From assembly GCA_025453875.1 (NCBI GenBank), contig JALOPN010000001.1, forward strand, positions 1 through 54,117: a stretch of 54,117 bases of DNA, written 5' to 3'. Below are positions 13,437 through 46,142 of the stretch, one piece after another. Below the pieces are notes generated by a model. It saw only the letters and a list, made by a program, of their open reading frames with translations, did no database searches and was not told the DNA's origin. The translations under genes were made by a program, and so were the position numbers. The stretch's first letter is position 1; each line of letters opens with the position of its first letter. Source of the stretch: Gemmatimonadaceae bacterium. Its GTDB lineage: Bacteria; Gemmatimonadota; Gemmatimonadetes; Gemmatimonadales; Gemmatimonadaceae.

Positions 13437-14488
13437 GGCGCGCTCGAAGATGCATCGGCTGACAGGGTCGTCGTGTCCGGCGTCTCGTCCACGGCACGAT
13501 CGTCCTGCTCCCCTTCGAAGCGCGTGGGGAGCGCTTCCGCGTCGTAGCCCTGTTCGCGCAGCCATCGCACCACGGGACCGGTGAAGCCGTGCGTCGGCAG
13601 CACGCGCTCCGCTCCCGTGGCCGCGATCGCGGTAAGCAGCTGTGGCCAGTCCACGTGATCGGACACGACGAAGCCGCGATCGACGCCGCGACGTCGACGC
13701 GCTCCGCGCACTTGCATCCATCCGCTCGCGAACGCCGCTGCCGCGGTGCCGAAGCGACGCGCCCACGGCGTGCCATCGACACCTGGTGGGGCCAGCACGA
13801 GCGCGCGCGACCACGTGGGGTCGCGGTGGTCGAGGGTGGCGTAGGTGGTGGGCGGCAGCGCGATGCCCGCGTCGCGATAGCGCGCGGTCATCGTCTCCAC
13901 CGCACCGTGTGTGAGGATGGGACCGATCTCGGGATCGAGCCCCGCCAGCAGCCGTTGTGCCTTGCCCAGTGCGTAGCCGTAAAGCATCGATGCGCGACCC
14001 GCGTCAGCATTGGCCCGCCACCACGAGTTGATCTCGGCGGTGACGACCTCGGGTGCGGGCCAGCGATAGATCGGCAGTCCGAACGTGCACTCGGTGACAA
14101 AGGTGTGGCAGCGTACAGGCTCCCACGGCTCGCACGTGGGGTCGGGGTCGATCTTGTAATCACCCGAGACCACCCACACTTCGCCCCGATGTTCGACGCG
14201 CACCTGGGCGGAGCCGAGGATGTGCCCCGCCGGATGGAAGGAGAACGTCACACCGTTCACCGTATTCGGCGCACCGTACGGCACGCCACGCGCCCGATCG
14301 GCGATGGCGCCAAGTCGTTGTCGGGTAACGCCGAGGCCGGGCTCGGCCACGAGGTACGCGTCGCACCCCCAGCGCAGATGGTCCCCGTGCGCGTGCGTGA
14401 TGACCGCCCGCTCGACCGGGGCCCAGGGATCGATGTAGCAATCGGCGGGCTCGCACCAGAGCCCACGGTCGGTCACACGAAGCAGCAT
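13433..14488 (-). CDS. ligase-associated DNA damage response exonuclease (metallo-beta-lactamase/beta-CASP fold)
   Basis: VITHAHGDHL MBL motif and FHPAGHILGSA. The start is either the ATG at 14488 (MLLRVTDRGLWCEPADCYIDPW) or the GTG at 14506. Confidence 0.85.
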   Translation of the reverse strand: MLLRVTDRGLWCEPADCYIDPWAPVERAVITHAHGDHLRWGCDAYLVAEPGLGVTRQRLGAIADRARGVPYGAPNTVNGVTFSFHPAGHILGSAQVRVEHRGEVWVVSGDYKIDPDPTCEPWEPVRCHTFVTECTFGLPIYRWPAPEVVTAEINSWWRANADAGRASMLYGYALGKAQRLLAGLDPEIGPILTHGAVETMTARYRDAGIALPPTTYATLDHRDPTWSRALVLAPPGVDGTPWARRFGTAAAAFASGWMQVRGARRRRGVDRGFVVSDHVDWPQLLTAIAATGAERVLPTHGFTGPVVRWLREQGYDAEALPTRFEGEQDDRAVDETPDTTTLSADASSSAP

Positions 14489-14541: not shown

Positions 14542-15507
14542 ATGGAACCTCGGCATCGGATTGGACGGTGGGGGTGGCGCGGCGCCCTCGCGCTTGGCGC
14601 GGCGCTGCTGCTGAACGCACCGGTGGAGGCGCAGCGGCGCTTCACCACGGCGCACCGGTGCAGCGCGTCGCAACAGGCGCGCGGCTGCCTTGTGGTGCTC
14701 GGCTCGGGCGTGCCCGTGCCCGATCCGAGCCGTATGGGGCCGGCCTACGCGGTGGTGTACGGTGACCGCACGTTTCTCTTCGATGCGGGCGCAGGCGTGA
14801 TGCGCCGCGCCGCCGAGGCGGGGCTCGCCATTGACGGCTTCACGCACGTCTTCCTGACGCATCTGCACACCGATCATACTCTCGGCCTGCCCGACGTGAT
14901 CTTCACGAGTTGGGTGATGGGGCGACGTCGCGCGATGGCGCTGACCGGGCCCCCGGGCACGGCGCGTCTTGTCGAGCATGTGCAGGTGGCGTGGTCGGAA
15001 GACATTCGGGTGCGCACCGATGGGCTCGAGCGCGGTCAACCCGGTGGGGAGCGGGTGGTGGTGCACGAGACGGACGGCGGGGTGGTCTACGACAGCGCGG
15101 GCGTACGCATTCGGGCCGTACGTGTTCCGCACGGCGAGTGGAAAACGGCCTTCGGCTATGTCATCGAGTTGCCGGAACGACGGATCGTGTTGAGTGGTGA
15201 CACGCGCGCGAGCGCCGAACTCGAAGCGGCGGCGCGACATGCGGATGTGCTGGTGCACGAGACATATCCGCTGGTGCGCCTCAAACCGGAAGATCGTCCG
15301 GGAGGCGACGCATGGCCGGCGTACATGCGGAGCGTGCATACGAGTGACGAGGAGGTGGGGGCGCTCGCCGAGCGGTCCCGCGTGCGGCTGGTGGTGCTGT
15401 CGCACGTCGTGTGGATGGGCGGGACCGATGCAGAACTCGAGGCCGGTGTGCGGCGCGGTGGCTACCGCGGCCCCATTCGCGTAGCACGTGATCTGGAGGT
15501 GTACTGA
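14542..15507 (+). CDS. secreted MBL-fold metallo-hydrolase (RNase Z/ElaC-like core)
   Basis: The N-terminal signal is WRGALALGAALLLNAPVEAQ. Motifs are LTHLHTDHTLG and a distal SGDT..HE..LSH. Confidence 0.75.
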   Translation: MEPRHRIGRWGWRGALALGAALLLNAPVEAQRRFTTAHRCSASQQARGCLVVLGSGVPVPDPSRMGPAYAVVYGDRTFLFDAGAGVMRRAAEAGLAIDGFTHVFLTHLHTDHTLGLPDVIFTSWVMGRRRAMALTGPPGTARLVEHVQVAWSEDIRVRTDGLERGQPGGERVVVHETDGGVVYDSAGVRIRAVRVPHGEWKTAFGYVIELPERRIVLSGDTRASAELEAAARHADVLVHETYPLVRLKPEDRPGGDAWPAYMRSVHTSDEEVGALAERSRVRLVVLSHVVWMGGTDAELEAGVRRGGYRGPIRVARDLEVY

Positions 15508-15508
15508 G

Positions 15509-18088: not shown

Positions 18089-18103
18089 CGATGGACGCGC
18101 TGC

Positions 18104-19174
18104 TCAGGGCGTGATGATGGTCACGCCCGGGTGTGGCGCCGTGTGCAACGACGCGAGGGCGTCGGGTGCGGCGTCGAGCGGGATCTCCCGCGTGACGAGC
18201 CGCGCCGGATCGAGCCGCCCCTCGCGCACCATGCCAAGCAATCGAGGATACGCGTGCGCGGCGAGCCCATGGCTGCCGACGACTTCGAGTTCACGTGCGA
18301 TTACGAGATGCAGCGGGAACGGGGGATTCGCATCCGCACCGGCCATGAGGCCGACCTGCACGAGGCGTCCATTCTTGCGCAGCGACTCGAGCGCACCGCG
18401 TGACGTCGCAGCAGACCCGAGGGCGTCGAGTGCCACATCGACACCGCCGCGGGTGAACTCGCGAATGTGATCGCGGACCGCGCGTGCGCGCGCAATCGTT
18501 GGAGCGCCCGTCGTGTCATCGCGCGCGTCGAGGCACAGTTCCGCACCCGCGGCTTCGGCGAGGGCGAGCGCCGCGGGTGACACATCCACCGCGATGGCGT
18601 GCGCGCCAACCGCCCGTGCGATCATGATGGCCGACAGCCCGACGCCACCGCATCCGAACACCGCCACGCGATCACCCTCGCGTACCCGGCCCTGATCGAG
18701 TACGGCACGAAACGACGTGGCGAATCGGCAGCCGAGGCTGGCGGCCGTGCTGAAGGACATCTCGTCCGGCAGGCGCACGAGGTTGAGGTCGGCGTGATGC
18801 AACGCGACGTACTCCGCGTAGGACCCCCAGTGCGTGAAGCCCGGCTGCGTCTGGTGATCACACACCTGCCCGTCACCCCGTGCGCAGGGTGGGCATGCGC
18901 CACAGGCACACACGAAGGGCACGGTCACACGATCCCCTTCGCGCCAGCGCGTCACGTCGCGTCCAACCGCCGCGACGGTCCCGGCCAGTTCGTGTCCCGG
19001 TACGTGCGGGAACGCGCGAATGTCGGGGTCGTGGCCCTGCCAGCCGTGCCAATCGCTGCGACAGAGGCCGGTCGCGTGGACGCGCACCACGACGCCGTGT
19101 GACGGTGGCGATGGATCGGGGAGCGTGGCGACCCGCAAAGGGCCGGCGAAGGCATCGAAGCAGACGGCGCGCAT
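18104..19174 (-). CDS. zinc-dependent alcohol dehydrogenase family oxidoreductase
   Basis: Only the C-terminal 356 aa of the 708-aa track ORF look real. These start MRAVCFDAF and contain CRSDWH, GHELAG, the structural-Zn site CACGACPPCARGDGQVC and the Rossmann motif VFGCGGVG. Confidence 0.85.
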   Translation of the reverse strand: MRAVCFDAFAGPLRVATLPDPSPPSHGVVVRVHATGLCRSDWHGWQGHDPDIRAFPHVPGHELAGTVAAVGRDVTRWREGDRVTVPFVCACGACPPCARGDGQVCDHQTQPGFTHWGSYAEYVALHHADLNLVRLPDEMSFSTAASLGCRFATSFRAVLDQGRVREGDRVAVFGCGGVGLSAIMIARAVGAHAIAVDVSPAALALAEAAGAELCLDARDDTTGAPTIARARAVRDHIREFTRGGVDVALDALGSAATSRGALESLRKNGRLVQVGLMAGADANPPFPLHLVIARELEVVGSHGLAAHAYPRLLGMVREGRLDPARLVTREIPLDAAPDALASLHTAPHPGVTIITP

Positions 19175-19240
19175 GATACCTTTCAAGCTATCGGACGCAC
19201 CGCGTCTCCGACACGCCTCGGCCTCTGCACGGGACCTCGC

Positions 19241-20122
19241 ATGACCACGCCGCTTGATGACCTGCTCGCGCTGCTCGATCTCGAACCGCTCGAGGTCAAC
19301 ATCTACCGTGGTCGCAATCGTGACCTGGGGACAGGTCGCGTGTTCGGTGGACAGGTGTTCGCGCAGGCGCTCGTGGCTGCGCGGCGGACGGTGGAAGAGG
19401 CGCGTGAAGCCCACTCGGTGCGCGGTGACTTCATTCTGCCGGGTGATCTGGCGGCTCCCATCGTGTACTTCGTGGATCGCCTGCGAGACGGTGCGAGCTT
19501 CGCCACACGTCGCGTCACCGCCATCCAGCATGGCCGTGCCATCTTCAACCTGTCGGCGAGCTTTCACAAGCAGGAAGATGGGCTCACGCATCAGTCCGAC
19601 ATGCCGACCGACGTGCCGGCGCCCGAGTCCATTCCGAGTGAGTTGTCGCTCATTCGCGCGATCGCCGATCGCATTCCGGAGCGGTATCGCGCCACGTGGA
19701 CGCAGGATCGCCCAATCGACATTCGGCCCGTTGCCCCGATCGATCCCTTCCGCCCCGATCGGCGAGCGCCGCAGCGCATGTTGTGGTTGCGCGCCGAGGG
19801 GCGCATGCCCGATGAGCCGCTGCTGCACCAGGCGGTGCTCGCGTATACGTCCGACTACAGTCTGCTCACCACAGCGCTGCTCCCGCACGGCGTGTCGTTC
19901 CGCGCGCCCGAGCTGCAGCTCGCCTCGCTCGATCATTCGCTGTGGTTGCATCGCCCCTTCCGCGTGGACGAGTGGATGCTCTACGTGATGGACAGCCCCA
20001 CCGCGCACGGCGCGCGCGGCTTCACACGCGGCGCGATCTACGCGCAGGACGGGACGCTGGTCGCCTCGGTGGCGCAGGAGGGACTGCTGCGCCTGCGGCC
20101 GACCACCGACTCGCCCCCGTGA
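19241..20122 (+). CDS. tesB: acyl-CoA thioesterase II
   Basis: Full-length TesB pattern: LDLEPLEVNIYRG..VFGGQVFAQAL..HSVRGDFILPGD..DGASFATRRVTAIQHGR..SLDHSLWLHRPF..GARGFTRG. Confidence 0.9.
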   Translation: MTTPLDDLLALLDLEPLEVNIYRGRNRDLGTGRVFGGQVFAQALVAARRTVEEAREAHSVRGDFILPGDLAAPIVYFVDRLRDGASFATRRVTAIQHGRAIFNLSASFHKQEDGLTHQSDMPTDVPAPESIPSELSLIRAIADRIPERYRATWTQDRPIDIRPVAPIDPFRPDRRAPQRMLWLRAEGRMPDEPLLHQAVLAYTSDYSLLTTALLPHGVSFRAPELQLASLDHSLWLHRPFRVDEWMLYVMDSPTAHGARGFTRGAIYAQDGTLVASVAQEGLLRLRPTTDSPP

Positions 20123-20135
20123 GTCGGACGCGTCG

Positions 20136-21263
20136 ATGACCACGCGTCTCGTGCTCGTGGGGCTCGGGCACGCGCACCTGTTCGTCCTCGAGGCTGCCGC
20201 GCGCGGTCGATTGAACGGAGTCGATCTCACGGTCGTGACCGGCGATGCGGCGCACGTCTACTCGGGTATGGTGCCAGGCTGGATTCGCGACCGTTACACG
20301 CGAAATGACCTGTCGCTCGATGTGCCCGCGTTGTGCGCGTGGGCAGGTGCGCGACACGTCGCACAGCACGCCGTCGGTCTGGACGAGGCCGCGCGCCAGG
20401 TGCGGCTCGCGAACGGCGAATCGTGCGCGTTCGAATGGTGCTCGGTCGCCGTGGGTTCGCGACCGGCGGGTCTGCAGCAGGTGCCGGGCGCCGCGCAACA
20501 CGCACTCCCGCTCAAGCCGTTGGCGAATGTGGCGCAACTACGTGATCGCCTCGACGCGCTCGCGGCGCGCGGCTCGGGGTCGGTCACGGTGGTTGGTGGT
20601 GGGCTCGCGGGACTGGAAGTGGCATTCGCCATGCGGACGCGCCTTGACGCTCGGCTCGGTTCCGCTCGCTCGCGTGACGTTTCAGTGGCGATCCTCACCC
20701 GTGACACCACCTTGCTGCCGGACCGGCCGGCGCTTGCCGCGCGTGTACAGCGTGCGCTCGTGCGGCGCGGCATCACCTGTCGGGTGGACGTCATGATCGA
20801 TGCGGTGCACGCGGATCACCTGCAGCTCGGACGCGCCGCGGACGTATCGAGTGATCTGACCGTGTGGGCGACGGGCGCGGAACCACCGGCGTGGCTGCGC
20901 GAGTCGGGACTACCGACCGACGCGCGTGGCTTTCTGCTGGTGGACGAACACCTGCGCACCGGTGCGACGCACGTCTTCGCGGCGGGCGACTGCGCCACAC
21001 CGCGTGTCCGCCCCGACACCGCGAAGGCGGGTGTCTACGCGGTGCGCATGGGACCGGTGCTCGCGCGCACGCTGGCTGCCACGGTTGCCGGGCGCCGGCT
21101 CCCGGCACCGTACACGCCGCAGCGCCACTTCCTCACCCTGATCGACACCGGCGATGGACGTGCGATCGCACACCGCGCGGGTTGGACCGCCGAAGGGCGT
21201 TGGGTGATGACGTGGAAGGATCACCTCGATCGCCGCTTCGTGCGCCGCTTTCAGTCGCGTTGA
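20136..21263 (+). CDS. FAD/NAD(P)-dependent pyridine nucleotide-disulfide oxidoreductase family protein
   Basis: The N-terminal dinucleotide fold is LVLVGLGHAH, the second fold is VTVVGGGLAGLEVA, and there is a distal AAGDCA motif. Confidence 0.75.
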   Translation: MTTRLVLVGLGHAHLFVLEAAARGRLNGVDLTVVTGDAAHVYSGMVPGWIRDRYTRNDLSLDVPALCAWAGARHVAQHAVGLDEAARQVRLANGESCAFEWCSVAVGSRPAGLQQVPGAAQHALPLKPLANVAQLRDRLDALAARGSGSVTVVGGGLAGLEVAFAMRTRLDARLGSARSRDVSVAILTRDTTLLPDRPALAARVQRALVRRGITCRVDVMIDAVHADHLQLGRAADVSSDLTVWATGAEPPAWLRESGLPTDARGFLLVDEHLRTGATHVFAAGDCATPRVRPDTAKAGVYAVRMGPVLARTLAATVAGRRLPAPYTPQRHFLTLIDTGDGRAIAHRAGWTAEGRWVMTWKDHLDRRFVRRFQSR

Positions 21264-22000
21264 AGGCGCTCCGGTCGCTCGTCGGCCTGACGGCGCGTCG
21301 CGATGAAGAGTGCCCCGTCGCGCGCACGCGGACCGTACGCGATGGTCGCCTGACTCGGGGTGAGGAGTGCGATGAAGTACACGTCATTCGCGGACACGAA
21401 CGCGTTCGCGCCAAGCACCTGTCCATCGACGACCAGGCTGAGGCACCGTCCGGTTCGCACGTAGTAGTAACACCCTTGTCCGCCCTCCGGCGGTCGCACG
21501 CTCGCCAACGGCAGACGTCGCAGCAGGTCACCCATCGACTGCACGCTCGCCCGCTCCTTCTCGATGCGCGCGGGGTCGATCACGCGCCACCCGCCCTGTC
21601 GCGCCTCGCGCAACATGTTCTGGTTGTACGTCCAGCGCACCGGACGATCACCCACGATGCGCACGGACGCGAGTGTCACGCCAACCACGGGCGCACCGAT
21701 CTGCAGGTCGATCGTGTCACGATCGATGGGCAATCGCACGAGCTCCGATTCCGTCGGTTCGGCGCCGACCTTGCGAATCACGAGGCGCACCGCGCGCGCG
21801 TTGCGGGCGTCGAGCAGGAAGCGACCGGCAGCGTTGGTGCGTGCCTCGCCGAGTGTGACGCGTGATGAATCGGTGAGGGTGATCACGGCATCGGCCAGTG
21901 GCGCGTCGCTGCCCGCCTGTACGAGGGTGCCGCGCACCACCTGTGCCGCAAGCGGCGCTCCGAGTGGCGCGAACAGGAGCGCCGCGATCGCGTACCACAT
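21251..22000 (-). CDS. secreted carboxypeptidase-regulatory-like domain protein with a plug-like C-terminal region
   Basis: The ATG at 22000 gives the signal MWYAIAALLFAPLGAPLAAQ. VRGTLVQ..AVITL..TNAAGRFLL (CarboxypepD_reg-like) follows, then MGDLLRRLPLASV..LVVDGQ. The upstream part of the track ORF overlaps fabH and is rejected. Confidence 0.55.
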   Translation of the reverse strand: MWYAIAALLFAPLGAPLAAQVVRGTLVQAGSDAPLADAVITLTDSSRVTLGEARTNAAGRFLLDARNARAVRLVIRKVGAEPTESELVRLPIDRDTIDLQIGAPVVGVTLASVRIVGDRPVRWTYNQNMLREARQGGWRVIDPARIEKERASVQSMGDLLRRLPLASVRPPEGGQGCYYYVRTGRCLSLVVDGQVLGANAFVSANDVYFIALLTPSQATIAYGPRARDGALFIATRRQADERPERLQRD

Positions 22001-22056
22001 GCGTCGCACCCGTGCGTCCGTGTGCACCGATCGTACGACGTGCGCGCGCACGCGGG

Positions 22057-23196
22057 TCAGCCGGCGGCAGAGAGCGTGTACGACTCGGCGAATGCGGGGG
22101 CCATGAGTCCGGCGAGCGAACGGCCGTGCGGGTCCTGATGCGCGCGGATCGCGTTCACCATCTCGAGCGCCGACTGCGTTGGCGGTGGCAACTCGATGGT
22201 GCTGTGCCCGAGCGGTGTGACACGTTCTCCCCACCGCACGAGCAGGGAACACCACGTGAGTCCACCACCGAACGCGGGCATGAGCAGGGTCGCGCCAGGG
22301 CGAACACGCCCTTCCTCCAGCGCTTCGACGAGCGCCACCGGCACGGTGGCCGCACTCATGTTCCCGTACTTCTGCACGGTCACCATCACCTTCTCCATCG
22401 GCACGCCGGCGTACTTCGCGACCGATTCGATGATGCGCAGGTTCGCCTGATGCGGCACGACGAGATCGATGTCATCGGGCGCGATGCCACGCTCGGCCAT
22501 CACCCGACGCGACGCTTCGGCCATCGCGTGCACAGCACGCTTGAAGATGGCCTGCCCATCGAAGTCCCACAGCGTGTCACCGAACGAAATCTCGCGATTG
22601 GCGTAGGTGCAGCCGAAGCCCCGCACCCGCAGCGTCTGTCGTCCCTCGGCGTCGCAACCGAGTGAGCTCGCGAGTACTCCCTGCTCGGTATCGGACGCCT
22701 GCAGCACTACCGCCGCGGCGCCATCACCGAACAGCACGGCCACGTTGCGGTTGCTCCAGTCCATGTACCGACTGATGAGCTCCACCCCGATCACGATGGC
22801 GTTGCGTACCACGCCGGTGCGGATCATCGCGGTGGCGGTCGTGAGGCCGTAGCAGAAGCTCGTGCACGCCGTGTTGAGGTCGATGCTCGCGGCCTTCGTG
22901 GCACCGAGCGCGATCTGCACCCCGGAGGCCGAGTTGGGCACGAGCTCGTCGTTCGACACCCCGCCGTAGATGATGAGATCCACATCGGCCGCATCGAGCC
23001 CCGCGCAGGCCAGCGCGCGTGACGCGGCCACGGTGGAGAGTTCGATCGCGCTCACGTGCGAGATGCGACGCTCGCGCATGCCGGTGCGTGTACTGATCCA
23101 CTCGTCCGACGTCTCGAGGAAGGTGGACAGGTCGTCGTTGCTGAGCACGGCGGGCGGCATGCACTTGCCCCAACCGGTGATGGCGGCGTAGGTCAT
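22057..23196 (-). CDS. fabH: 3-oxoacyl-ACP synthase III (FabH-like) with a ~50-aa C-terminal extension
   Basis: The Cys/His/Asn catalytic contexts are NTACTSFCYG, VPHQANLRII and GNMSAATVP. A tail follows the usual C-terminus: ERVTPLGHSTIELPPPTQSALEMVNAIRAHQ... Confidence 0.8.
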   Translation of the reverse strand: MTYAAITGWGKCMPPAVLSNDDLSTFLETSDEWISTRTGMRERRISHVSAIELSTVAASRALACAGLDAADVDLIIYGGVSNDELVPNSASGVQIALGATKAASIDLNTACTSFCYGLTTATAMIRTGVVRNAIVIGVELISRYMDWSNRNVAVLFGDGAAAVVLQASDTEQGVLASSLGCDAEGRQTLRVRGFGCTYANREISFGDTLWDFDGQAIFKRAVHAMAEASRRVMAERGIAPDDIDLVVPHQANLRIIESVAKYAGVPMEKVMVTVQKYGNMSAATVPVALVEALEEGRVRPGATLLMPAFGGGLTWCSLLVRWGERVTPLGHSTIELPPPTQSALEMVNAIRAHQDPHGRSLAGLMAPAFAESYTLSAAG

Positions 23197-23292
23197 GGCG
23201 GGCGGACAGGCGGGAGGATTCCGGGCGAACGCTGCCGGAAACTGGGCGCCGGACCAGCGGGGCGGGAGGGGCGTCCCGCCCGCCCCGACCGT

Positions 23293-24360
23293 TTAGCGCA
23301 GGGACCGTCGCGTGGGCAAAACCACCCAGTAGTCGAAGTCGAGGACAACCGACGGATCGTAGCCGCCGCTTTCGAGCTGGTCCGGGAAGTCGCGGGCCGC
23401 CCGATCCTTCACCGCCACGGTGCGGACCCGCAGCGCGCCCAGATCGGTCCGATCGGGCAGCGGCTCGTGCGCCAGCACTTCCGACCACGCGTAGATCGTG
23501 TCGCCCGCGAAGCTCGGGTTGACGTGACGTCCACCGTTGATGCCGACGATCGCAAACGCGTTGCCGAGCCCATTGAACGACAACGCCCGCGCGAGCGAAA
23601 TGAGGTGCCCGCCGTACACGATGCGGCGACCGAAGCGACCGTCGCGTTCCACGTGCTGGTTGAAGTGCACGCGCGCTGTGTTCTGGTAGAGACGCGCGGC
23701 CATCATGTGTTCCGCTTCCTCGATCGTCATGCCGTCCACGTGATCGATGCGCTCACCCACGGTGTAGTCTTCCCAGGCGAACGGGCTGCCCGCGAGCGCG
23801 GTGTCGTACGTGCCGGGCGCGATGTGGAACGGGACATGCAACGAGGATGGTGTCACGCCACTTGGCAGCTCAGGCACCACGGGGGACGGTGGTACCGACG
23901 ACGCATCGCGCTTCCGCACCATGGCCCAGCGCGTGTACTCGAGGACGAGTTCGTCGTGCTGATTGACGCCGCGGGATCGCACGTATACCACGCCCGTCGT
24001 CCCATCACGATTGGCCTTGGTGCCGAGCACGGTGCTCGTCGTGCGGATCGTGTCACCTGGGTACACCGGTACACCGAATCGACCATCGGCGTAGCCGAGA
24101 TTGGCGATCGCATTCAGCGAAACATCGGGTACGGTCTTGCCGAACACGACGTGAAACACGAGCACGCTGTCGAGTGGCGCCGCGCGCAGGCCGACCGACT
24201 CGGCGAACGGCGCGGACGACACCGGGGCAAACCGACCGCCGAACAGCGCGGTGTAGAGCGCGACGTCGCCGTCGGTCACGGTGCGCGGCGTTGCGTGAAC
24301 GAGCGTCTCGCCCACCACAAAATCCTCGAAGAATCGGCCAGCGTTCGTCTTGGTGCTCAT
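23293..24360 (-). CDS. mch: double hot-dog MaoC-family enoyl-CoA hydratase, mesaconyl-C1-CoA (beta-methylmalyl-CoA) hydratase-like
   Basis: 355 aa from the ATG at 24360 (MSTKTNAGRFFEDFVVGE). It has two MaoC-like halves and sits immediately downstream of the malyl-CoA lyase gene. Confidence 0.75.
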   Translation of the reverse strand: MSTKTNAGRFFEDFVVGETLVHATPRTVTDGDVALYTALFGGRFAPVSSAPFAESVGLRAAPLDSVLVFHVVFGKTVPDVSLNAIANLGYADGRFGVPVYPGDTIRTTSTVLGTKANRDGTTGVVYVRSRGVNQHDELVLEYTRWAMVRKRDASSVPPSPVVPELPSGVTPSSLHVPFHIAPGTYDTALAGSPFAWEDYTVGERIDHVDGMTIEEAEHMMAARLYQNTARVHFNQHVERDGRFGRRIVYGGHLISLARALSFNGLGNAFAIVGINGGRHVNPSFAGDTIYAWSEVLAHEPLPDRTDLGALRVRTVAVKDRAARDFPDQLESGGYDPSVVLDFDYWVVLPTRRSLR

Positions 24361-24370
24361 GGTGCGCGAC

Positions 24371-25417
24371 TCACGCGAACTCGTAGGCGGTGGCCAGCTC
24401 GGGATCCTTCTGCGCCACAAGCCGGGCGAGATCGACGATGACCTTCGCCTGCTTCCACGTGGCGTCGTCCTGCATCTTGCCGTCGATCATCGCCACACCG
24501 CTGCCGTCCGGCATCGCGTCGAGAATACGCTTGGCGAACAGCACTTCCTTCACGTCGGGGCTGAACACGCGCCGCGCAATGGCGATCTGGTTGGGTGCGA
24601 GCGACCAGGCGCCCGTGCACCCCATCACGAACGCATTGCGGAACTGTGCTTCGCAGCCGGCCTCGTCACGGATGTCGCCGAACGGGCCATAGAACGCTCG
24701 AATGCCGTGCGACACGCAGGCATCCACCATGCGCGCCACGGTGTAGTGCCACAGATCCTGCTGCACGAACGCGCGCGTCGCGCCGTCCTCGGCCGGGTCG
24801 GAGAGGACGCCGTAGAACGGATGCCCGCCGCCGACGCGCGTGGTCTTCATGCCACGCGAGGCCGCGAGGTCGGCCGGCCCGAGCGAGAGACCGTGCATGC
24901 GCGGGCTCGCGCCGGCGATCTGTTCGACGTTCTTCACGCCCTCCGCGGTTTCCAGCAGCGCGTGAATCAGGATGGGGCGCGTGATGCCGTGGCGGGCCTC
25001 CAGCAGCGCGAGGTACTGGTCCACGAAGTGAATGTCCCACGGCCCTTCGACCTTCGGGATCATCACCACGTCCACCCGATTGCCGGCGCGCGCGACGATC
25101 TCCGACAAGTCATCGAGGATCCACGGCGAGTTCAGGCAGTTCACGCGCACCCACAGCTGCGTGCCACCGAAGTCATGCGCGTTGGCCACCGCAATGAATC
25201 CTTCGCGCGCCGCGCCCTTGTCTTCCACCGGAATCGCGTCTTCGAGGTTGCCGCACAGGACGTCCACCTGCGCGAGCATCTCCGGCACACGAGCACGGAT
25301 CTTCTCCACGTGCGGCGGGAAGAAATGGATCATGCGCTCCGGACGCACCGGCAGCGTGCGAAACGGCAGGGGTGCGCCAATCGCGAGCGGCTTGTAGAAG
25401 TTGACGGGAAGCTTCAC
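24371..25417 (-). CDS. mcl: L-malyl-CoA/beta-methylmalyl-CoA/citramalyl-CoA lyase (HpcH/HpaI-CitE family)
   Basis: 348 aa. [126 protein letters not shown]. The length and motifs match my recollection of the Chloroflexus/Rhodobacter Mcl family. Confidence 0.88.
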
Positions 25418-25440
25418 GAGAGACTCGGGGTGGAGGAGAG

Positions 25441-26667
25441 TCAGGCAGCAGGGCCAGCCACGATGCCGGCGTCGTGTAACGCGCCGAGTTCGGCCTCGCT
25501 GAGGCCGGCGATCGACAACAGGACTTCGTCGGTGTGCTCACCGAGCGTTGGGGCGGGCGCGACCGCGCTCCGCGCCATCTCGGCGAAATGCAGCGGGATG
25601 CCAGCCGCGAGGTACGGCGCCCCGGAGGCGGCCGTGACCTCGCCGAAGATCGGATTGGCGAGGCTCGCGTCGGCGTCGTGCGCGAGCAGTTCGCGCACCG
25701 TACGATACGGACCCCACGCGACACGGTGCCGCGTGAGCGTGTCGCGCACCTCCGCAATCGTTCTCGCCGCAAACCATGGCGCGAGGACGTCGCTGATGTG
25801 TTCGCGCGCAGTGAAGCGCGCGCCTTCGTCCTGCAGGTCGAGGCGGAGCTGCGTGGCGAGCGCCGCCATCACATCGGCACTGTCCGTGGCGGCGACGAGT
25901 GCCTTCCACTGCGCGTCAGTCAGCCCCACCACCATGACGCGCGCGCCATCGGCCGTCATGAAGTCGCGGCCGAAGGCGCCGAACAGGTAGTTCCCGTACC
26001 GCGGGCGATCGGCGTCGTGCAACGCGGCTTCTCCGAGGAAGCCGAGGTGCGACAGCATGGCCAGCCCGACGTCCTTGAGCGCGAGTTGCACCAGCTGTCC
26101 ACGTCCCGTTCGCGAGCGATGCCGCTCGGCCGCGAGCAGACCGATCGCGAGCTGATGCCCCGCGATCAGATCCCACGCCGGCAACACATGATTCACCGGT
26201 GTGTCATCGTGCGCCGGGCCGGTGAGCGATGGCACGCCAATGGCCGGGTTGACGGTGTAGTCGACTTCACTACCGCCATCGCGCCGACCGGTGAGCACGA
26301 GCATGATCAGGTCGTCGCGGTGCGCGCGGAGCGCCTCGTACGAGAGCCAGCCACGCGCCGGAAAGTTGGTGGAGAAGATGCCGGCGTCCGGTCCCGGTGC
26401 GGTGATCACGCGCGTGAGGACTTCCTGTCCACGCGGTGATCGCAGATCGATCGCGACGGACCGTTTGCCGCGATTGAGGCCGCTCCAGAAGAGACTCTCG
26501 CGGCCGTCCGGTGCGAGCGGCCAGCGCCGCGCGTCGAGGCCGCCGCCAATCTGATCGAAGCGAATGACATCGGCACCAAGCTGCGCGAGCGTGAGACCAC
26601 CGAGCGGTGCCGCCACAAACGCGCTGCCTTCCACCACACGCAGCCCGGAGAGCAATCCGTCGTGCAC
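25441..26667 (-). CDS. mct: family III (CaiB/BaiF) CoA-transferase, mesaconyl-CoA C1-C4 transferase-like
   Basis: 408 aa with a GTG start at 26667, 2 nt after the upstream stop. [30 protein letters not shown] are family III hallmarks. It sits between the mcl gene and the transferase pair. Confidence 0.7.
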
Positions 26668-26669
26668 GC

Positions 26670-27941
26670 TCAGATCACCCGGCGGGCGCGCAGATCGGCG
26701 ATCGCCGCCTCATCGAGGCCGAGCACCTCGTGCAGCACCTCGTCGGTGTGCTGCCCGAGCGTGGGGCCGAGCGACCGGATGCTGCCGGGTGTCTCGGAGA
26801 GACGCGGGACCACCGACGGGACCACCATGGCTTCGCCCGTGAGGGGATCGTCGATGGCCACGAGGTTGCGTCGCGCGTGAAACTGCCGGTCGCCGAAGAT
26901 GTCGGCGATGTTGTTGAGCGGGCCGGCTGGCGTGTCGGTCGCGTAGCAGCGCGTAAGCACCTCTTCGCGCGTGAGCGACCCGCACCAGTCACGCACGATC
27001 TCGTTCACGGCGTGCGCGTGCGCGAGGCGAACCTTCTGTTCGCCATAGGTGCTTGATGACGCCAGCTCCGGTCGCCCCATCGCCTGTGTCAGTCGCGCGA
27101 ACAGCTTGTCGGTGGCGCAGGAAATGGCGACCCACTTGCCGTCCTTCGTGGCGAAGTGGCCGTGCGGGCAGGCGAAGTCGTTGTGGCTGGAGCCCATGCG
27201 CTCACGCACGGTGCCGTTGAGACTGTAGGCGGGCGCGAGTTCGTCGGTGCACCGGAACACCGATTCGTAGAGCGCGGCATCCACGTACTGCCCTTCACCC
27301 GTGCGGTCACGATGCCGCAGCGCCATGAGCACACCGAGGCAACCGTACAGCCCCGTCATGTAGTCGCCGAGCGTTGTGGAGCCGGGCGTGACGGGCGTGC
27401 CCTTGGGCATCCCGGCGAGATACGCAATGCCGCCCACCGCGTGCGCGACGCGCGCGAACCCCGGACGATCCTTGTACGGGCCCGTCTGTCCGTAGCCCGT
27501 GACGCGGAGCATGATGAGTCGCGGATTGATCGCGCGCAGCACGTCCCAGCCGAGGCCCCACTTCTCGAGCGTGCCCGTGCGGAAGTTCTCGCACAGCACA
27601 TCTGTCTCGGCGATGAGCGCCTTGAAGAGGCGCATACCGTCGGGGTGGCGCAGGTCGAGCGTGACGCTGCGCTTGTTGCGCGCCTCGCTCACCCACGTGA
27701 GTGTGTCGCCGCGTTGCGACGGTGTGCCGAAGCGACGCAATCCGTCGCCGCCAACGGGATGCTCGACCTTGAGGACGTCGGCACCGAACTCGCCCAGCAA
27801 TGTGGCGCAGAATGGCGCGGCGATGATCGTCGCGACATCGACCACGCGAATGCCGGCCAGCGGCAGCGGCGTCGCGGCGTGCACCGGTGGCGAACCCGGC
27901 TGCGCCTGATCGCCCGTCATGTGAGAGGCCGTTGTGGTCAT
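26670..27941 (-). CDS. family III CoA-transferase, SmtA/SmtB-like subunit (succinyl-CoA:malate/citramalate type)
   Basis: 423 aa. [54 protein letters not shown]. It is a clear paralogue of the next gene. Its ATG shares one nucleotide with the upstream stop (TGATG). Confidence 0.7.
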
Positions 27942-29185
27942 CAGATGATCCGCTGTTGACGCAGTCGTTCGATTTCCGACGTGGCAAGGCCGAGCAACTC
28001 GCGCAACACGTCGTCGGTGGCGTTGCCGAGTGTGGGGCCGAGATTCGTGATGCGTCCCGGTGTCTGCGACAATCGTGGAATCACGCCCGGAATCACCACG
28101 TCCGGCACGCCCGCTTCAGACATGCGCGCGAGGTTCTCGCGGGCCGCGAACTGTTCGTCCTCGAAAATGTCGGCAATGCTGTTGACCTTGCCGACAGGCA
28201 CCTCCTCCTCGAGGCACCGGGCCAGCACTTCGTCACGCGACAGCGATCCGACCCATTCGATGACGATGGCGTTCACTCGATCGCGATCAGCCAATCGCTT
28301 GCGCTGGTCGCCGTACAGGTTGCTCGACGACAGATGCGGTTGCCCCATCGCGACCGAGAGCCGCTCGAACATCTTGTCGGTGGTGCAGGCGATGGCGATC
28401 CACTTGTCGTCGGCGGTGCGGAAATGTCCGTGCGGTACCGCCACAAAGCTGCCAGACCCTTCGCGTTCGCGGATCTTGCCACTCTGTCCATAGGCGGTGG
28501 CGATCTCCTCGAGCACGCGGAACACGGATTCATAAATGCCGACGTCGATCATCTGACCGCGTCCGGTCGCCTCCTGATGGCGCAGGGCGATCAGCACACC
28601 GATCGCGCCGAAGAGACTCGCGATGTAGTCACCCAGTGGCACCGTGCCCGGCAGCACGGGGGTCTCGCCTGGAAAGCCGGCGAGATAGTTGAGCCCCCCG
28701 AACGCCTGCGCGATGTGCGCAAACCCCGAGCGCCGACGGTACGGCCCCGTCTGCCCGTACCCCGACACGCGCAGCATCACGAGCGCCGGATTGGCCGCGT
28801 GCACCTGATCCCAGCCGAGGCCCCACTCCTCCATGGTGCCGGGGCGAAAGTTCTCCACGAGCACGTGCGACTTGCGGCACAACGCGAGAAAGAGCGAAAC
28901 CCCTTCGGGCTGTCGCAGGTCGAGCGTGACCGACTTGCGATTGCGTCCCTCACTCAGCCACTTGAGCGAGGCGTCGGACCGCGGCGACGGCGTCCCGAAG
29001 CGACGCATCGGATCGCCGGCGATGGGATGCTCGATCTTGAGCACTTCCGCGCCGAATTCGCCGAGAATGGAGGCGGCATACGGGCCGGCGAGAAAGTTGC
29101 CGACATCGAGCACGCGCACGCCGGCCAGCGGGAGCGCGGCGGTTGGCTGGCCGGTGTGGCCGGCATCGCTATCTTGGGGCGACAC
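27941..29185 (-). CDS. family III CoA-transferase, SmtA/SmtB-like subunit (paralogue of 26670..27941)
   Basis: 414 aa. [54 protein letters not shown]. The track start at 29185 is a GTG. Confidence 0.7.
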
Positions 29186-29217
29186 GATGATGGTCCTCTC
29201 CTCCGCCAGGGTCGATC

Positions 29218-30102
29218 ATGGAACCTGCAGCTCCCGACATCAGCGAGTGGGTCGGACGCACCGAGACCGTGCACGACACGCTTGCCCCAGCGCAGGCGCT
29301 CGCCGTGGCGGCCATGTTCGACGACCCCAATCTAACGGCTCAGGTCGGCGATGCGATCCCGGCGCTCTGGCAGTGGTTCTATTTCCTGCCTCGCGCACCG
29401 CAGTCGCGCCTCGGTGAAGATGGCCATCCGGAGAAGGGCGGCTTCATGCCACCCATCAGCCTCCCCCGTCGCATGTTCGCTGGCGCGCGTGTGCGGATCC
29501 ACCGACCGCTCTCCATCGGACGACCGGCCGCGCGGCACGCCGTGATCCACGACGTGAGTCGCAAGGAAGGACGCTCCGGCTCGCTCGCGTTCGTGACCGT
29601 GCACTATCGCTTCGAGCAGGATGGCGTGCTCTGCATCGAGGAGGAGCAGGACATCGTATATCGCGAACCGGGGGCGCCCGTGCCCACGCCAACCGTGCAG
29701 CCGTGGCCTGACGCGCCGCCGCGGGCCGTGACGCAGGTGATGCACGTCGACACGCGACTGCTGTTCCGCTTTTCGGCGCTCACCTTCAATGCGCACCGTA
29801 TTCACTACGACCGCGAGTACGCGCGCACGGCCGAAGGGTATCCGGGGCTCGTCGTGCACGGACCGCTCACCGCGCACCTGCTGCTGCGACTCGCCGAGCG
29901 TCAGGAACACGATCGTGCGCGTGATGCGGGGCGCGCTGCCCGCGCCGTACGGACCTTCTCGTTTCGCGGGGTGGCGCCGTTGTTCGACATCGCGCCCTTT
30001 CGACTGCAGAGCGTCCGCGACGGCGATCAGGCGCAGCTGGTCGCCATCGGACCCGATGGCAACCCGGCGCTCACGGCCGATGTCTCGTTCGGCGAGAGCT
30101 GA
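29218..30102 (+). CDS. meh: MaoC/FAS1-dehydratase-like hydratase, mesaconyl-C4-CoA (or itaconyl-CoA) hydratase-like
   Basis: 294 aa. LWQWFYFLPRAPQS..GHP.KGGFMPP..PRRMFAG and FRFSALTFNAHRIHYDREYA..EGYPGLVVHGPL. It is divergent from the transferase operon. Confidence 0.7.
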   Translation: MEPAAPDISEWVGRTETVHDTLAPAQALAVAAMFDDPNLTAQVGDAIPALWQWFYFLPRAPQSRLGEDGHPEKGGFMPPISLPRRMFAGARVRIHRPLSIGRPAARHAVIHDVSRKEGRSGSLAFVTVHYRFEQDGVLCIEEEQDIVYREPGAPVPTPTVQPWPDAPPRAVTQVMHVDTRLLFRFSALTFNAHRIHYDREYARTAEGYPGLVVHGPLTAHLLLRLAERQEHDRARDAGRAARAVRTFSFRGVAPLFDIAPFRLQSVRDGDQAQLVAIGPDGNPALTADVSFGES

Positions 30103-30161
30103 CGCGCGGAAGGTTGCGTCGCGACCGTGAACCTTGGCGCTCGTTCACACGTTACGCCTGC

Positions 30162-30686
30162 ATGACCCAACACGACACCACGATGGATTCTTCCGCGCGT
30201 TCCGCGTTCGACTTCGACGCCACCACGATTGACGGCGCCGCGCGCTCCTTGCGCGACTACGCTGGTCAGGTGCTCCTCATCGTCAACGTGGCCAGCCAGT
30301 GCGGCCTGACGCCGCAGTACGCAGGGCTGGAGCAGCTCTGGCGCACTTACCGCGAGCGCGGCTTCACCGTGCTCGGATTCCCCTGCAATCAGTTCGGCGC
30401 GCAGGAGCCGGGCACCGAAGCGCAGATCGCCACCTTCTGCGAAACGCGATTCGACGTGACCTTCCCGCTCTTTGCCAAGATCGATGTGAATGGCGACGGC
30501 GCGCACCCGCTCTGGAAGTGGATGCGTCAGGAAGAGCCGGGATTGCTGGGCAGTGAAGCCATCAAGTGGAACTTCACCAAGTTTCTCATCGGCCGTGACG
30601 GCCGCGTGCTGCAGCGCTTCGCGCCGACCAGCACGCCCGAGTCCCTTGTCTCCGCCATCGAGGCGGCCCTCGCGCAGCCCGCCTGA
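30162..30686 (+). CDS. glutathione peroxidase (Cys-type, BtuE-like)
   Basis: LLIVNVASQCGLTPQY, LGFPCNQFGAQEPG, WNFTKFLIGRDG. I chose the ATG at 30162; the MDSS start 21 nt downstream is also possible. Confidence 0.9.
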   Translation: MTQHDTTMDSSARSAFDFDATTIDGAARSLRDYAGQVLLIVNVASQCGLTPQYAGLEQLWRTYRERGFTVLGFPCNQFGAQEPGTEAQIATFCETRFDVTFPLFAKIDVNGDGAHPLWKWMRQEEPGLLGSEAIKWNFTKFLIGRDGRVLQRFAPTSTPESLVSAIEAALAQPA

Positions 30687-30693
30687 ACGCAAC

Positions 30694-30723
30694 GCGGGCC
30701 ACCACGCGATCGTGGTGGCCCGC
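30694..30723. terminator. GC-rich hairpin between convergent gpx and M28 peptidase genes
   Basis: GCGGGCCACCACG-cgat-CGTGGTGGCCCGC is a perfect 13-bp stem. A second small hairpin, CCGCGCG-atctc-CGCGCGG, follows. There is no U-tract. Confidence 0.5.
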
Positions 30724-30746
30724 GTCACCGCGCGATCTCCGCGCGG

Positions 30747-32429
30747 TCAGCCCCCGCAGCGCGCCGCGGGATCTTGCTGGTCGCGCGGCAACACGGCCAG
30801 ACGCTGCGGCCGATTCGCGATGGTCGAGGCGATGTCGTGCACGAAGCGTGCGACGCGTGCGCTCAGATCGTAGTTGATGTACTGCGGCTCGTCCGTCGGC
30901 ATGTGGTAGTCGCGCGAGTACCCGAGCGAGAAGTACGTCGTGGGAATGCCCTTGCGGATGTAGCTGACCTGATCGCTGCGGCAGAATCGGTTGAGCCGAT
31001 TCGTGCGGTCCCACGAATAGTCGATGACCATGGGTTCATCGCGCACCGCGTTCAGCGAATCGATCATGTCGCCGAACTCGACCGACACACGCCGCGAGCC
31101 GAGCATCTGCACCGAGTGCGGTCCACCGAACTTCACGTCGGTCACGCGGCCCTTGCCGAGCATGTCCATGTTGTGCGCGGCCACGACGGAGTCGAGCGGC
31201 ACCGTGGGATGCTCCGTCCACCACGCCGAGCCGAGCAGCCCCTTCTCTTCGGCCGCGTGCGCGTGAAAGAGGATGGAACGTGCCGGCCGCGGACCCGTGG
31301 CAAAGCGTTCGGCGATCTCGAGCAGCACCATGCTGCCGCTGCCGTCATCATCGGCGCCGTTGTTCACCGTGTCGAGGCGCGGCGGTCGAACGGCGCGTGC
31401 CTTGGCGATGAGCCCGTTGATCTCGCCCCACTGCTGCGGCGTCACGGCATCGATCGACACGCGATCGTTCGCGCCTTGCGGACGCATCACCGTGTTGAAC
31501 GCGCGGAGTGAATCGTGGTCTGGCGCCGCCCCGCGCACCATGCCCACGTGGTCGCTGTGCGCACCGAGCAGCACGTATTGCCCCTTCCGCGCCGGATCGG
31601 CCCCCGGCAGGATGGCGAGGACGTTGCGCACCGGATGCTCGAGCGCCGTGTACGTGTACGTCCACGCACCGCTCAGCGGCTGCCCTGTGGCGCCGGCGGC
31701 GAGTCCGCTCGCGGCCTGCCCGAAGAGTCGCGACAGCGCGCCCGATGTGATGAGCGCGCCGCCCATGGTGCCCGCGACATTCACCTTCATGCCGACGCGC
31801 TCCGTGAACGCCGTGCTCGGCAGGTTGTCCGAGACAAAGAGCAGGACGGCGGCGCCGGCGGCGCGAGCCGCCGCGATCGCGGCCGGTGGCTGCCCCCCAG
31901 CAGGTGCGCCCACGAACACCACGGCGCGTCCCTTCATCTGCTCGGCCGAGAGCGCGGCCTGCGCCACCGGGCCGGCGAACACCGGTACGACGCCGTCGAA
32001 CGTCACCGCACCCGACACGCCCAGCGCCGCATTCGGAGGCAGCGGCGCGAAGTCGGTGCCCGCGACCAGACGCGCCCGTCCGGCGCGCAACGTGGTGCGG
32101 TTCGCGACATACGCGGAGCGCCCGTAGTCGAGCACCTGGAAGTATGTGCCGTTCTCGCCGGCCGGGATCAGGCCGAGCCGCTTGAACTCGGCCGCGATGT
32201 AGTCGGTGCCCTTGATGTTGCCGAGCGTACCCGCCTCGCGCCCCATCATGGAATCGTCGGCGAACTGGTAGAGGCGTGTGCGCAGATCGTTGGCCGTGAT
32301 GGCCGCTTCGGTGGGGCGCGGTGCCCAGGTGCGCGGGCCTTCGTCGGGCCAGACGGTCTGGGCGACGAGGGGCGACGAGGCGGGCAGCAGGAGCGCGGTC
32401 AGAGCCGCGAGGACGACGGGAGATCGCAT
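30747..32429 (-). CDS. secreted M28-family aminopeptidase with a PA (protease-associated) insert
   Basis: The ATG at 32429 gives the signal MRSPVVLAALTALLLPASSPLVAQ. The metal-ligand motifs are GAHSDHVG, NNGADDDGSG and AAEEKGLLGS. The 183 codons upstream in the track ORF are rejected as not protein-like. Confidence 0.85.
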   Translation of the reverse strand: MRSPVVLAALTALLLPASSPLVAQTVWPDEGPRTWAPRPTEAAITANDLRTRLYQFADDSMMGREAGTLGNIKGTDYIAAEFKRLGLIPAGENGTYFQVLDYGRSAYVANRTTLRAGRARLVAGTDFAPLPPNAALGVSGAVTFDGVVPVFAGPVAQAALSAEQMKGRAVVFVGAPAGGQPPAAIAAARAAGAAVLLFVSDNLPSTAFTERVGMKVNVAGTMGGALITSGALSRLFGQAASGLAAGATGQPLSGAWTYTYTALEHPVRNVLAILPGADPARKGQYVLLGAHSDHVGMVRGAAPDHDSLRAFNTVMRPQGANDRVSIDAVTPQQWGEINGLIAKARAVRPPRLDTVNNGADDDGSGSMVLLEIAERFATGPRPARSILFHAHAAEEKGLLGSAWWTEHPTVPLDSVVAAHNMDMLGKGRVTDVKFGGPHSVQMLGSRRVSVEFGDMIDSLNAVRDEPMVIDYSWDRTNRLNRFCRSDQVSYIRKGIPTTYFSLGYSRDYHMPTDEPQYINYDLSARVARFVHDIASTIANRPQRLAVLPRDQQDPAARCGG

Positions 32430-33418
32430 CGGGGGCGGGGCAGGAGTGGGGTGACCACAGAAATGTCGCCCACGCGGTATGTTGGCGCCATGCAACGCAC
32501 CCCTCTCTCCTCTGTGACGCGTCCCTCGGCACGACTCGCGATCGCCCTCGTGGCGGTTGTACGCGCCAGCCGCATGCAGGCGATACAGGCGCGGCGAGCC
32601 TGATCCGCTCAATGCCAGGAGACCCAGCCTGACCTGCTGACGGGTGACGTGAGGCGCGACGCGACAAGCATCCGGACTCTCGTGCGGTCGTCGATCGCTC
32701 TCAATCGTGACGCACAGCCCGACCGAACCCGTGGTTGGCGCCGCCTGACATCCGCATAATCGCAGCCGATGCATCCTGAGCGCGTTCTCCACCGGTTGCC
32801 GCTGGTGTTCGGCGTCTGGAAGAACCTGAGACCCGCATGGAGACGCGGATTGGCGCCATAGGTGAAAGGCTCTCGTCGATGAGGCAACACCCTCGGGCCA
32901 TTGGTGATGACGGGTGTCCCCGCGAAGAATCACGAGTATCTGCTCCGGCGGAAGGACTTCGCCGACAAGCACGATCATGAAAAACTTAACGACCGCGAGC
33001 AGCCGTTCCGGCGGCCGTGCCGGTCATGATCGCTGAGTGGCAGGCGACGGTGCCGGAGCCGAAGACGCGCTGCCTTGGGCGATACGTGCAGGCTCGAGGA
33101 GCGTCCCTCAAGAACTAGTGGTACGCGTGCACGAGGGTGCGCACGAATTCTGCACCATTGAAAACAATGATGCTTGAGCACGCAATCAATCTGGGACCGG
33201 GTGCGAGTCACGCTAACGCAGGAGTCAGTGAGCGCAACTTCCGTCCTCCACCGAACCGTTCCACTGTTGGACTCCACCGGCATCATGTCCCTTCAGCCGC
33301 CGTACGCGGTGGCGTCGCGCCGGGTCGAACGCTGTCACGGGGCAGACGAGGCGCCCGGGTGGACCTGTGCCATCGATACAGCGGTACGCCGTGGCGGGTT
33401 GATCCGTGCGCAATACCC

Positions 33419-46130: not shown

Positions 46131-46142
46131 CGCGACGATACA

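Follow-up and report, generated by a model that had tools for sequence, protein, structure and literature searches.

A 54-kb stretch of DNA from a Gemmatimonadaceae bacterium (contig JALOPN010000001.1, hereafter the window, ~68% GC) carries, between positions 23293 and 30102, six genes for relatives of the Chloroflexus enzymes Mch, Mcl, Mct, SmtA, SmtB and Meh. It is likely that this operon is the glyoxylate-assimilation half of the 3-hydroxypropionate (3HP) bi-cycle of the Chloroflexus type, and that in this wetland Gemmatimonadales bacterium, where it is a self-contained operon of the chromosome, it works as a shunt for co-assimilation and for the linking of metabolite pools. The features of the Chloroflexus-type module that are present include the active site of Mct, Mcl, Mch together with Meh, the SmtA/SmtB pair, and the gene order and orientation. 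What is observed directly here is which genes these are, how the operon is built, and that both the active site of Mct and, across phyla, the module as a whole are conserved. In agreement with the initial annotation, which was made from the DNA letters, the products group with the Chloroflexales enzymes and not with the itaconate enzymes RipB and RipC or with carnitine or formyl-CoA enzymes. The operon is already known: it is a further instance of a published pattern, and it adds one more Gemmatimonadales genome to the growing list of non-Chloroflexi that hold the second half of the 3HP bi-cycle as an apparently horizontally mobile operon.

According to the open reading frame (ORF) lists and the GC content by codon position, on which the gene calls were based, the locus consists of five closely packed genes on the minus strand and one divergent gene on the plus strand (Table 1). 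The minus-strand genes are transcribed in the order smtA-like, smtB-like, mct, mcl, mch, with spacers of -1, 2, 23 and 10 nt; thus, the stop codon of the smtA-like gene overlaps the start of the smtB-like gene by 1 nt. All six genes lie where the initial annotation had placed them, and the Pfam and NCBIfam matches agree with the domains it named (MC_hydratase/MaoC, HpcH_HpaI, three CoA_transf_3 and FAS1_DH_region). Five of the six products are identical word for word to public gene calls, and Mct is identical to a product encoded on a separate Logan metagenome contig. For the mch-like gene, the earlier call was right about its presence and not about its extent, as the end at 24420 (375 aa) comes from extending the ORF upstream to a TTG: the alignment with the PDB structure begins at residue 21, and the product on record has 355 aa.

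Table 1. Positions of the six-gene operon, its divergent intergenic region and the adjoining FabH-like gene in the window.
Feature	Position	Strand	Description
mch-like	23293..24360	-	355 aa, double hot-dog MaoC; beta-methylmalyl-CoA dehydratase / mesaconyl-C1-CoA hydratase
mcl-like	24371..25417	-	348 aa, PF03328 HpcH_HpaI
mct-like	25441..26667	-	408 aa, family III CoA-transferase
smtB-like	26670..27941	-	423 aa, family III CoA-transferase subunit, position of Caur_0178
smtA-like	27941..29185	-	414 aa, family III CoA-transferase subunit, position of Caur_0179; first gene of the operon
Divergent intergenic region between the smtA-like and meh-like starts	29186..29217	.	32 bp, read from the sequence
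meh-like	29218..30102	+	294 aa; mesaconyl-C4-CoA hydratase (3-methylfumaryl-CoA hydratase)
FabH-like beta-ketoacyl-ACP synthase III	22057..23196	-	NF006829 371 bits, TIGR00747 335 bits, both above cut-off

The Mct product aligns without gaps with PDB entries 7xkg (E 3e-179) and 8apq, the Mct of C. aurantiacus (E 4e-176), and its match to a formyl-CoA transferase structure has an E value of about 1e-23. In the C. aurantiacus enzyme, the active site residues are the catalytic Asp165, Arg47, Tyr136 and Leu43 (Pfister et al., PMC9813914). The corresponding residues in the window are D166, R48, Y137 and L44, and all of them are invariant across an alignment of 14 homologs. In addition, Mct scores 624 bits (E 1e-187) with TIGR04253 (2-methylfumaryl-CoA isomerase), and every other NCBIfam model of family III gives at most 107 bits. 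By tblastn, Mct is 63% identical to its syntenic counterpart in Chloroflexus sp. MS-G (L012), and the nearest named relatives of both Mct and the SmtA-like product, among the matches listed, are metagenome-assembled genomes (MAGs) of Gemmatimonadaceae.

The assignment of Mcl is based on its matches to PDB entries 4l7z/4l80 and 6kin (deposited as HpcH/HpaI aldolase), with E values of about 1e-196; these are the Mcl enzymes of C. aurantiacus and Roseiflexus. Its identity to the Chloroflexus sp. MS-G protein is 80%. Mch contains PF19315 MC_hydratase together with PF01575, and it matches 4e3e (MaoC domain protein dehydratase) at 1e-166 and 8hgn (beta-methylmalyl-CoA dehydratase) at 9e-139, with 67% identity to the MS-G protein. 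A malyl-CoA/beta-methylmalyl-CoA lyase and a mesaconyl-CoA hydratase are also employed in the ethylmalonyl-CoA pathway and in the methylaspartate cycle, to which Mcl and Mch might alternatively belong, and weak matches to the haloarchaeal models NF041625 and NF041626 were found. However, these matches score 60-78 bits against cut-offs of 500-560. Similarly, the malyl-CoA lyases 4l9y (E 4e-59) and 5ugr (E 1e-50), which we take to be the Rhodobacter and Methylobacterium enzymes of the ethylmalonyl-CoA pathway, are far more distant from Mcl than the Chloroflexales-type entries. The window contains no ccr, ecm, mcd or methylaspartate genes, and Mct, Meh and SmtAB are not members of either pathway. 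A role in one of these two pathways is thus hardly credible.

Meh is related to proteins of another route. The only solved relatives of the Meh product are 8khg and 8huc (itaconyl-CoA hydratase; E 1e-59), with roughly 45% identity as read from the alignment, and its Pfam match is PF13452 FAS1_DH_region (E 7e-6). The itaconate route of Pseudomonas is built on homologous families, and Mcl and Mch show weak matches to the RipC_Ccl and RipB_Ich models, respectively. It was therefore considered, as in the initial annotation, that the genes might form an itaconate, mesaconate or citramalate degradation route, starting with activation of the dicarboxylate by a family III transferase; the Meh-like protein would then form citramalyl-CoA, from which the lyase would release acetyl-CoA and pyruvate. 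The itaconate enzymes (Ict/Ich/Ccl; RipA/B/C) share with the module the superfamilies of the family III CoA-transferases, MaoC-type hydratases and CitE/HpcH lyases, and both systems finish with the cleavage of citramalyl-CoA. On the other hand, the scores of Mcl (129 bits with RipC_Ccl, cut-off 375) and Mch (116 bits with RipB/Ich, cut-off 340) are well under the equivalog cut-offs, the match of Mcl to the 'citrate lyase' 3qll (E 5e-23) is weak in comparison with that to the Chloroflexales-type entries, and Meh is closer to the gene of the Chloroflexus cluster (59% identity in MS-G) than to itaconyl-CoA hydratase. Furthermore, the itaconate route has no equivalent of Mct or Mch. Because these two enzymes have no role in itaconate breakdown and are nevertheless invariably inherited together with the rest of the operon, this alternative is considered very improbable.

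The two SmtAB-like transferases have no close solved relative, and their best structural matches are SUGCT or formyl-CoA-transferase-like proteins (E 1e-56 to 1e-68). For the smtB-like product, the nearest is SUGCT 9br7 (E 1e-68), and all NCBIfam equivalogs are far under their cut-offs. The products share 57% identity with each other. The match to PF02515 has an E value of 2e-118 for the smtB-like product and 1e-110 for the smtA-like product, and the syntenic genes of Chloroflexus sp. MS-G are 80% and 75% identical, respectively. In C. aurantiacus, mch is Caur_0173, mcl is Caur_0174, smtB is Caur_0178, smtA is Caur_0179 and meh is Caur_0180 (Tang et al. 2011, PMC3150298). Since smtA thus stands beside meh in that genome, the transferase that adjoins meh in the window is named the SmtA-like one. 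This corrects the order smtA-smtB-meh that had been attributed to Chloroflexus; the published order is mch-mcl-mct...smtB-smtA-meh, and the names in IMG agree with it, as the database cluster mates of the SmtA-like product (at least 90% identical) are called 'subunit A'. In fact, IMG already gives specific enzyme names to the cluster mates of the contig, and the database names for the mates of Mch and Meh are 2-methylfumaryl-CoA hydratase and 3-methylfumaryl-CoA hydratase, respectively.

The distribution of the module was examined by a scan with the Mct alignment over one genome per GTDB species, which gave at least 589 loci encoding an Mct relative; the best 80 of these were compared with the window proteins by tblastn. 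The layout meh(-) / smtA-like, smtB-like, mct, mcl, mch(+) was found in ~25 of these 80 loci. They include, in the Chloroflexales, Chloroflexus sp. MS-G, Roseiflexus (L005) and the further loci L009, L013 and L034; in the Gemmatimonadota, six loci at the level of Gemmatimonadales and two of Longimicrobiales; and, in addition, Methylibium, Rubrivivax and other Burkholderiales, Rhodocyclaceae and Propionivibrio, two Myxococcota, one Planctomycetaceae and one Woeseiaceae. The recurrence of the same set, order and orientation in ~25 loci of several phyla goes far past what chance would produce. The identity of the six products to their syntenic counterparts is 59-80% in Chloroflexus sp. MS-G and 60-81% in Roseiflexus; flanking genes and ORFs are conserved among close relatives only. 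The implied restriction of such clusters to Chloroflexus and a few aerobic phototrophic proteobacteria is thus out of date, both by the number of species genomes with an Mct relative and because the module has been published for Gemmatimonadales.

In a neighbor-joining tree built from the concatenation of all six proteins (2152 columns), the window falls among other Gemmatimonadales, adjacent to Burkholderiales. The Chloroflexales form a separate clade, and the Longimicrobiales, members of the window's own phylum, lie far off with Woeseiaceae and Myxococcota. Within the Gemmatimonadales, the lineage of the window is a distinct sub-branch, with ~76% identity over the six proteins to the others. 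Because the orders cohere in this tree and the phyla do not, the result indicates that the module probably moved between phyla as a unit by horizontal transfer. Such a transfer has already been argued in the literature, to go by what is cited in PMC6593406.

Several loci of the scan depart from this layout. In the Accumulibacter loci L017, L018, L021, L025 and L026 and the Gemmatimonadetes locus L020, meh and mct-mcl-mch occur without an adjacent SmtA/B pair. In L017, L018, L021 and L025, mch is followed by subunits of a 2-oxoacid:ferredoxin oxidoreductase and a flavoprotein/Fe-S oxidoreductase, and a DUF6986 protein and an acyl-CoA dehydrogenase are encoded on the meh side. The loci L035-L079, from Actinomycetota, Alphaproteobacteria and Acidobacteriota, hold Mct homologs (55-62% identity) that stand alone or have distant (~30%) Mcl- or Mch-like neighbors. 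Low completeness of the pathway in Actinobacteriota was reported by Garritano et al. (PMC9802188).

The host of the module is not a Chloroflexus. As had been proposed, the context is a different one: every named match of the housekeeping enzyme formate-tetrahydrofolate ligase (FTHFS) encoded at 5042-6733 (71-75%) is from Gemmatimonadales, Gemmatimonadaceae including Gemmatimonas aurantiaca, or, in one case, Gemmatimonadota. The window is almost completely contained in one wetland metagenome run, and related sequences are present in runs from wastewater and freshwater. Over 15427-32574, a segment that includes the cluster, the window is collinear with L082, an independently assembled contig of 161 kb with 86% DNA identity; because of this collinearity, the cluster is native to the lineage. 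A chimeric contig was considered and is ruled out by the uniform GC content and the 17 kb that are collinear with L082.

The comparison with known systems shows close likeness and some differences. C. aurantiacus Caur_0173-0180 has the same six families, the same order and the same divergent meh as the window. By locus-tag numbering, mct and smtB of C. aurantiacus are separated by two genes, Caur_0176/0177, and no such genes are seen in the window. The window genes are also more tightly packed, with a divergent gap of 32 bp compared to several hundred bp in Chloroflexus sp. MS-G (an estimate from the coordinates of high-scoring segment pairs), and in contrast to Chloroflexus, the contig is that of a Gemmatimonadales host, has 68% GC and is not phototroph-like. 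UniRef entries A9WC35, A9WC34 and A9WC41, which we take to be the C. aurantiacus Mcl, Mch and Meh, provide a further comparison. A Gemmatimonadaceae MAG of Garritano et al. shows 78%, 73% and 59% identity to these entries, similar to the 80%, 67% and 59% of the window to MS-G. In that work, a 'glyoxylate salvage' operon was described in MAGs of Gemmatimonadales and Burkholderiaceae, with TIGR04253 as the marker (Garritano et al. 2022, PNAS Nexus, PMC9802188), and the MAGs share with the window the order-level taxon and the operon arrangement. They were also scored with genes of the pcs/mcr type (propionyl-CoA synthase and malonyl-CoA reductase), whereas the 54 kb of the window lack them. Seah et al. 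2019 (PMC6593406) described partial 3HP bi-cycles in the heterotrophs and mixotrophs Ca. Kentron, Ca. Thiosymbion, Ca. Accumulibacter and Ca. Competibacter and proposed a heterotrophic role. These taxa encode Mch, Mcl, Mct, Meh and Smt, with pcs/mcr not being obligatory, and the enzymes were proposed to link the pools of acetyl-CoA, propionyl-CoA, pyruvate and glyoxylate; they differ from the window in phylum, and several Accumulibacter loci lack the SmtAB pair and have the 2-oxoacid:ferredoxin oxidoreductase genes downstream.

By orthology to the characterized enzymes of Chloroflexus and Roseiflexus, a seven-step chemistry may be proposed, in which the activities, the substrate specificities, the direction of flux and the physiological role are all inferred. 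SmtAB would transfer CoA from succinyl-CoA to (S)-malate, giving (S)-malyl-CoA and succinate, and Mcl would cleave (S)-malyl-CoA into acetyl-CoA and glyoxylate. Glyoxylate would then be condensed with propionyl-CoA to beta-methylmalyl-CoA, again by Mcl, and Mch would dehydrate this product to mesaconyl-C1-CoA. Subsequently, Mct would convert mesaconyl-C1-CoA to mesaconyl-C4-CoA by an intramolecular CoA shift through an Asp-anhydride intermediate, Meh would hydrate the latter to (S)-citramalyl-CoA, and finally Mcl would cleave (S)-citramalyl-CoA into pyruvate and acetyl-CoA. In heterotrophic or mixotrophic growth, such a shunt would link the pools of propionyl-CoA, glyoxylate, malate, acetyl-CoA and pyruvate, and the co-assimilated substrates would be glycolate/glyoxylate, propionate and acetate.

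Every reaction of the pathway is reversible, an established point of its biochemistry, and the module might therefore run mainly in reverse as a citramalate-type cycle, from acetyl-CoA and pyruvate through citramalyl-CoA, mesaconyl-CoA and beta-methylmalyl-CoA to propionyl-CoA and glyoxylate. Mcl and SmtAB together would then be the equivalent of a malate synthase, and the cycle would serve acetate assimilation or the supply of propionyl-CoA for storage polymers. The occurrence of the module in the polymer-cycling wastewater taxa Accumulibacter, Propionivibrio and Contendobacter is consistent with this, as is the presence of relatives of the contig in wastewater metagenomes. However, no genes for propionyl-CoA carboxylase, methylmalonyl-CoA mutase or polyhydroxyalkanoate synthesis were found near the cluster in the window, and reverse operation as the main mode seems improbable. 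The first two of these enzymes are not encoded anywhere in the 54-kb window, and photosynthesis genes are likewise absent from it.

Whether the preferred co-assimilation shunt is the whole pathway of this organism depends on pcs and mcr. Neither gene was found in the 54 kb, which extend 23 kb and 24 kb on the two sides of the cluster, or within the fetched sequence (up to 10 kb on each side of the cluster) of the other Gemmatimonadales loci or L082. Because both genes are missing from the window, and because partial pathways are common in heterotrophs, the co-assimilation shunt is favored, and a heterotrophic role is plausible. As an extension of this, the module may be, in a lineage without pcs/mcr, a stand-alone heterotrophic route for propionyl-CoA and glyoxylate, or a reverse citramalate-type cycle, that replaces or stands beside the methylcitrate and glyoxylate shunts; this suggestion is a tentative one, with somewhat less than an even chance. 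To our knowledge, such a stand-alone heterotrophic physiology has been proposed repeatedly and never demonstrated biochemically outside Chloroflexus.

The competing explanation is a complete, CO2-fixing 3HP bi-cycle in a (photo)litho-autotroph or mixotroph; the operon would supply its second half, and pcs and mcr would be located elsewhere in the genome. Two Gemmatimonadales MAGs were scored with all genes of the bi-cycle by Garritano et al. 2022 (PMC9802188), and full-length Pcs homologs (1843 aa; 72% identity to a Burkholderiales Pcs) with Gemmatimonadaceae or Gemmatimonadota names exist. In another Gemmatimonadaceae MAG (L085), the order is pcs, a 1234-aa double short-chain dehydrogenase/reductase (SDR) gene resembling mcr, and tesB. 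Moreover, in the Burkholderiales loci L006, L015 and L016 (Methylibium sp. NZG and others) and the Longimicrobiales locus L019, the Pcs-like gene (an AMP-binding/enoyl-CoA hydratase/alcohol dehydrogenase fusion of ~1840 aa) and the Mcr-like gene (a double-SDR protein of ~1230 aa) lie directly beside the six-gene cluster, and in C. aurantiacus itself pcs and mcr are unlinked to the cluster (PMC3150298). Because pcs-mcr occur in other Gemmatimonadaceae, the full bi-cycle keeps a real share of the probability. On the other hand, in addition to the absence of both genes from the flanks, the partial pathway stands alone in many lineages, and the tesB gene of L085 (19400-20263; 73% identity to that of the window), which lies directly downstream of pcs-mcr, has a counterpart in the window with a Zn-dependent alcohol dehydrogenase (Zn-ADH) gene upstream instead. 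Taken together, a full bi-cycle in this organism is rather unlikely. The distinction matters for soils, wetlands and wastewater, where such organisms would either fix CO2 or only co-assimilate glycolate/glyoxylate, propionate and acetate.

Several points weigh against the interpretation of the operon as a heterotrophic, Chloroflexus-type shunt. The score of Mct with TIGR04253 is below the equivalog cut-off of 725 bits. The specificity of the SmtA/B pair is a prediction from the identity to the MS-G genes, the gene order and the IMG names. Among RNA runs, none containing the sequence was found. In addition, pcs-mcr may be present elsewhere in the genome, as they are unlinked in C. aurantiacus and present in the other Gemmatimonadaceae MAG, which would make the module part of a CO2-fixing bi-cycle.

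A scan of 21800-31000 gave no match to a sigma-70-like promoter, and terminator-like matches in the same region were fewer than expected by chance. Because the divergent gap is only 32 bp and no sigma-70-like match was found, the divergent promoters must overlap coding sequence or belong to a non-canonical type. No regulator gene stands beside the cluster here; in the Burkholderiales loci L006, L015 and L033, a LysR gene adjoins meh.

At the loci L006 (10001-21212), L015, L016 and L019, all eight 3HP-specific genes are gathered in one place. A conserved 1247-aa ORF in L006 and L033 was considered as a neighboring gene and rejected, as it is an antisense shadow of a Pcs-like gene.

The genes around the cluster are unrelated housekeeping genes. 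They encode the FabH-like beta-ketoacyl-ACP synthase III, a carboxypeptidase-regulatory-domain protein, a flavoprotein oxidoreductase, TesB, the Zn-ADH, M1 and M28 peptidases, a glutathione peroxidase and glycoside hydrolases. The FabH-like gene follows mch at a distance of 96 bp and is read from the same strand. This synteny is shared with the close relative L082, and the gene is absent beside the cluster in loci other than L082; it is probably a lineage-specific neighbor outside the module. FabH, TesB, the glutathione peroxidase and the Pyr_redox_2 protein are generic. The tesB gene (acyl-CoA thioesterase II, 19241-20122, plus strand) scores just over the TIGR00189 cut-off and lies 3 kb from mch; TesB may be functionally tied to the pathway, or its adjacency may be coincidental synteny. 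The Zn-ADH (18104-19174) was considered as an acrylyl-CoA reductase or a crotonyl-CoA carboxylase/reductase and rejected, as all specific models are far under cut-off.

Farther from the operon, the 5.2-kb segment 32575-37738 has a GC content of 0.60-0.64, lower than in its surroundings (0.67-0.70). Except for a sub-threshold 6-bladed beta-propeller and a sub-threshold Peptidase_MA, Pfam gives no matches for its ORFs. In L082, which is otherwise collinear, the counterpart is a 1.15-kb segment with a gene of the beta-lactamase family, and the M28 peptidase ORF differs in its N-terminal region as a result (743 aa in the window and 560 aa in L082). The segment has the look of a variable island or indel. 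On the minus strand at 8611-13814, an ATP-dependent DNA ligase (11832-13814), an Lhr-type large helicase (9328-11835) and a metallophosphoesterase (8611-9306) are encoded in a row that looks like a DNA-repair operon. Finally, the region 38931-53629 resembles a polysaccharide-utilization locus, with a 1059-aa protein similar to glycoside hydrolase (GH) family 2, two GH3 proteins (42074-44329 and 44142-46130), an MFS sugar transporter, a GH16 protein, a ROK-family regulator, a Big_2-domain protein and a TonB-dependent receptor fragment.

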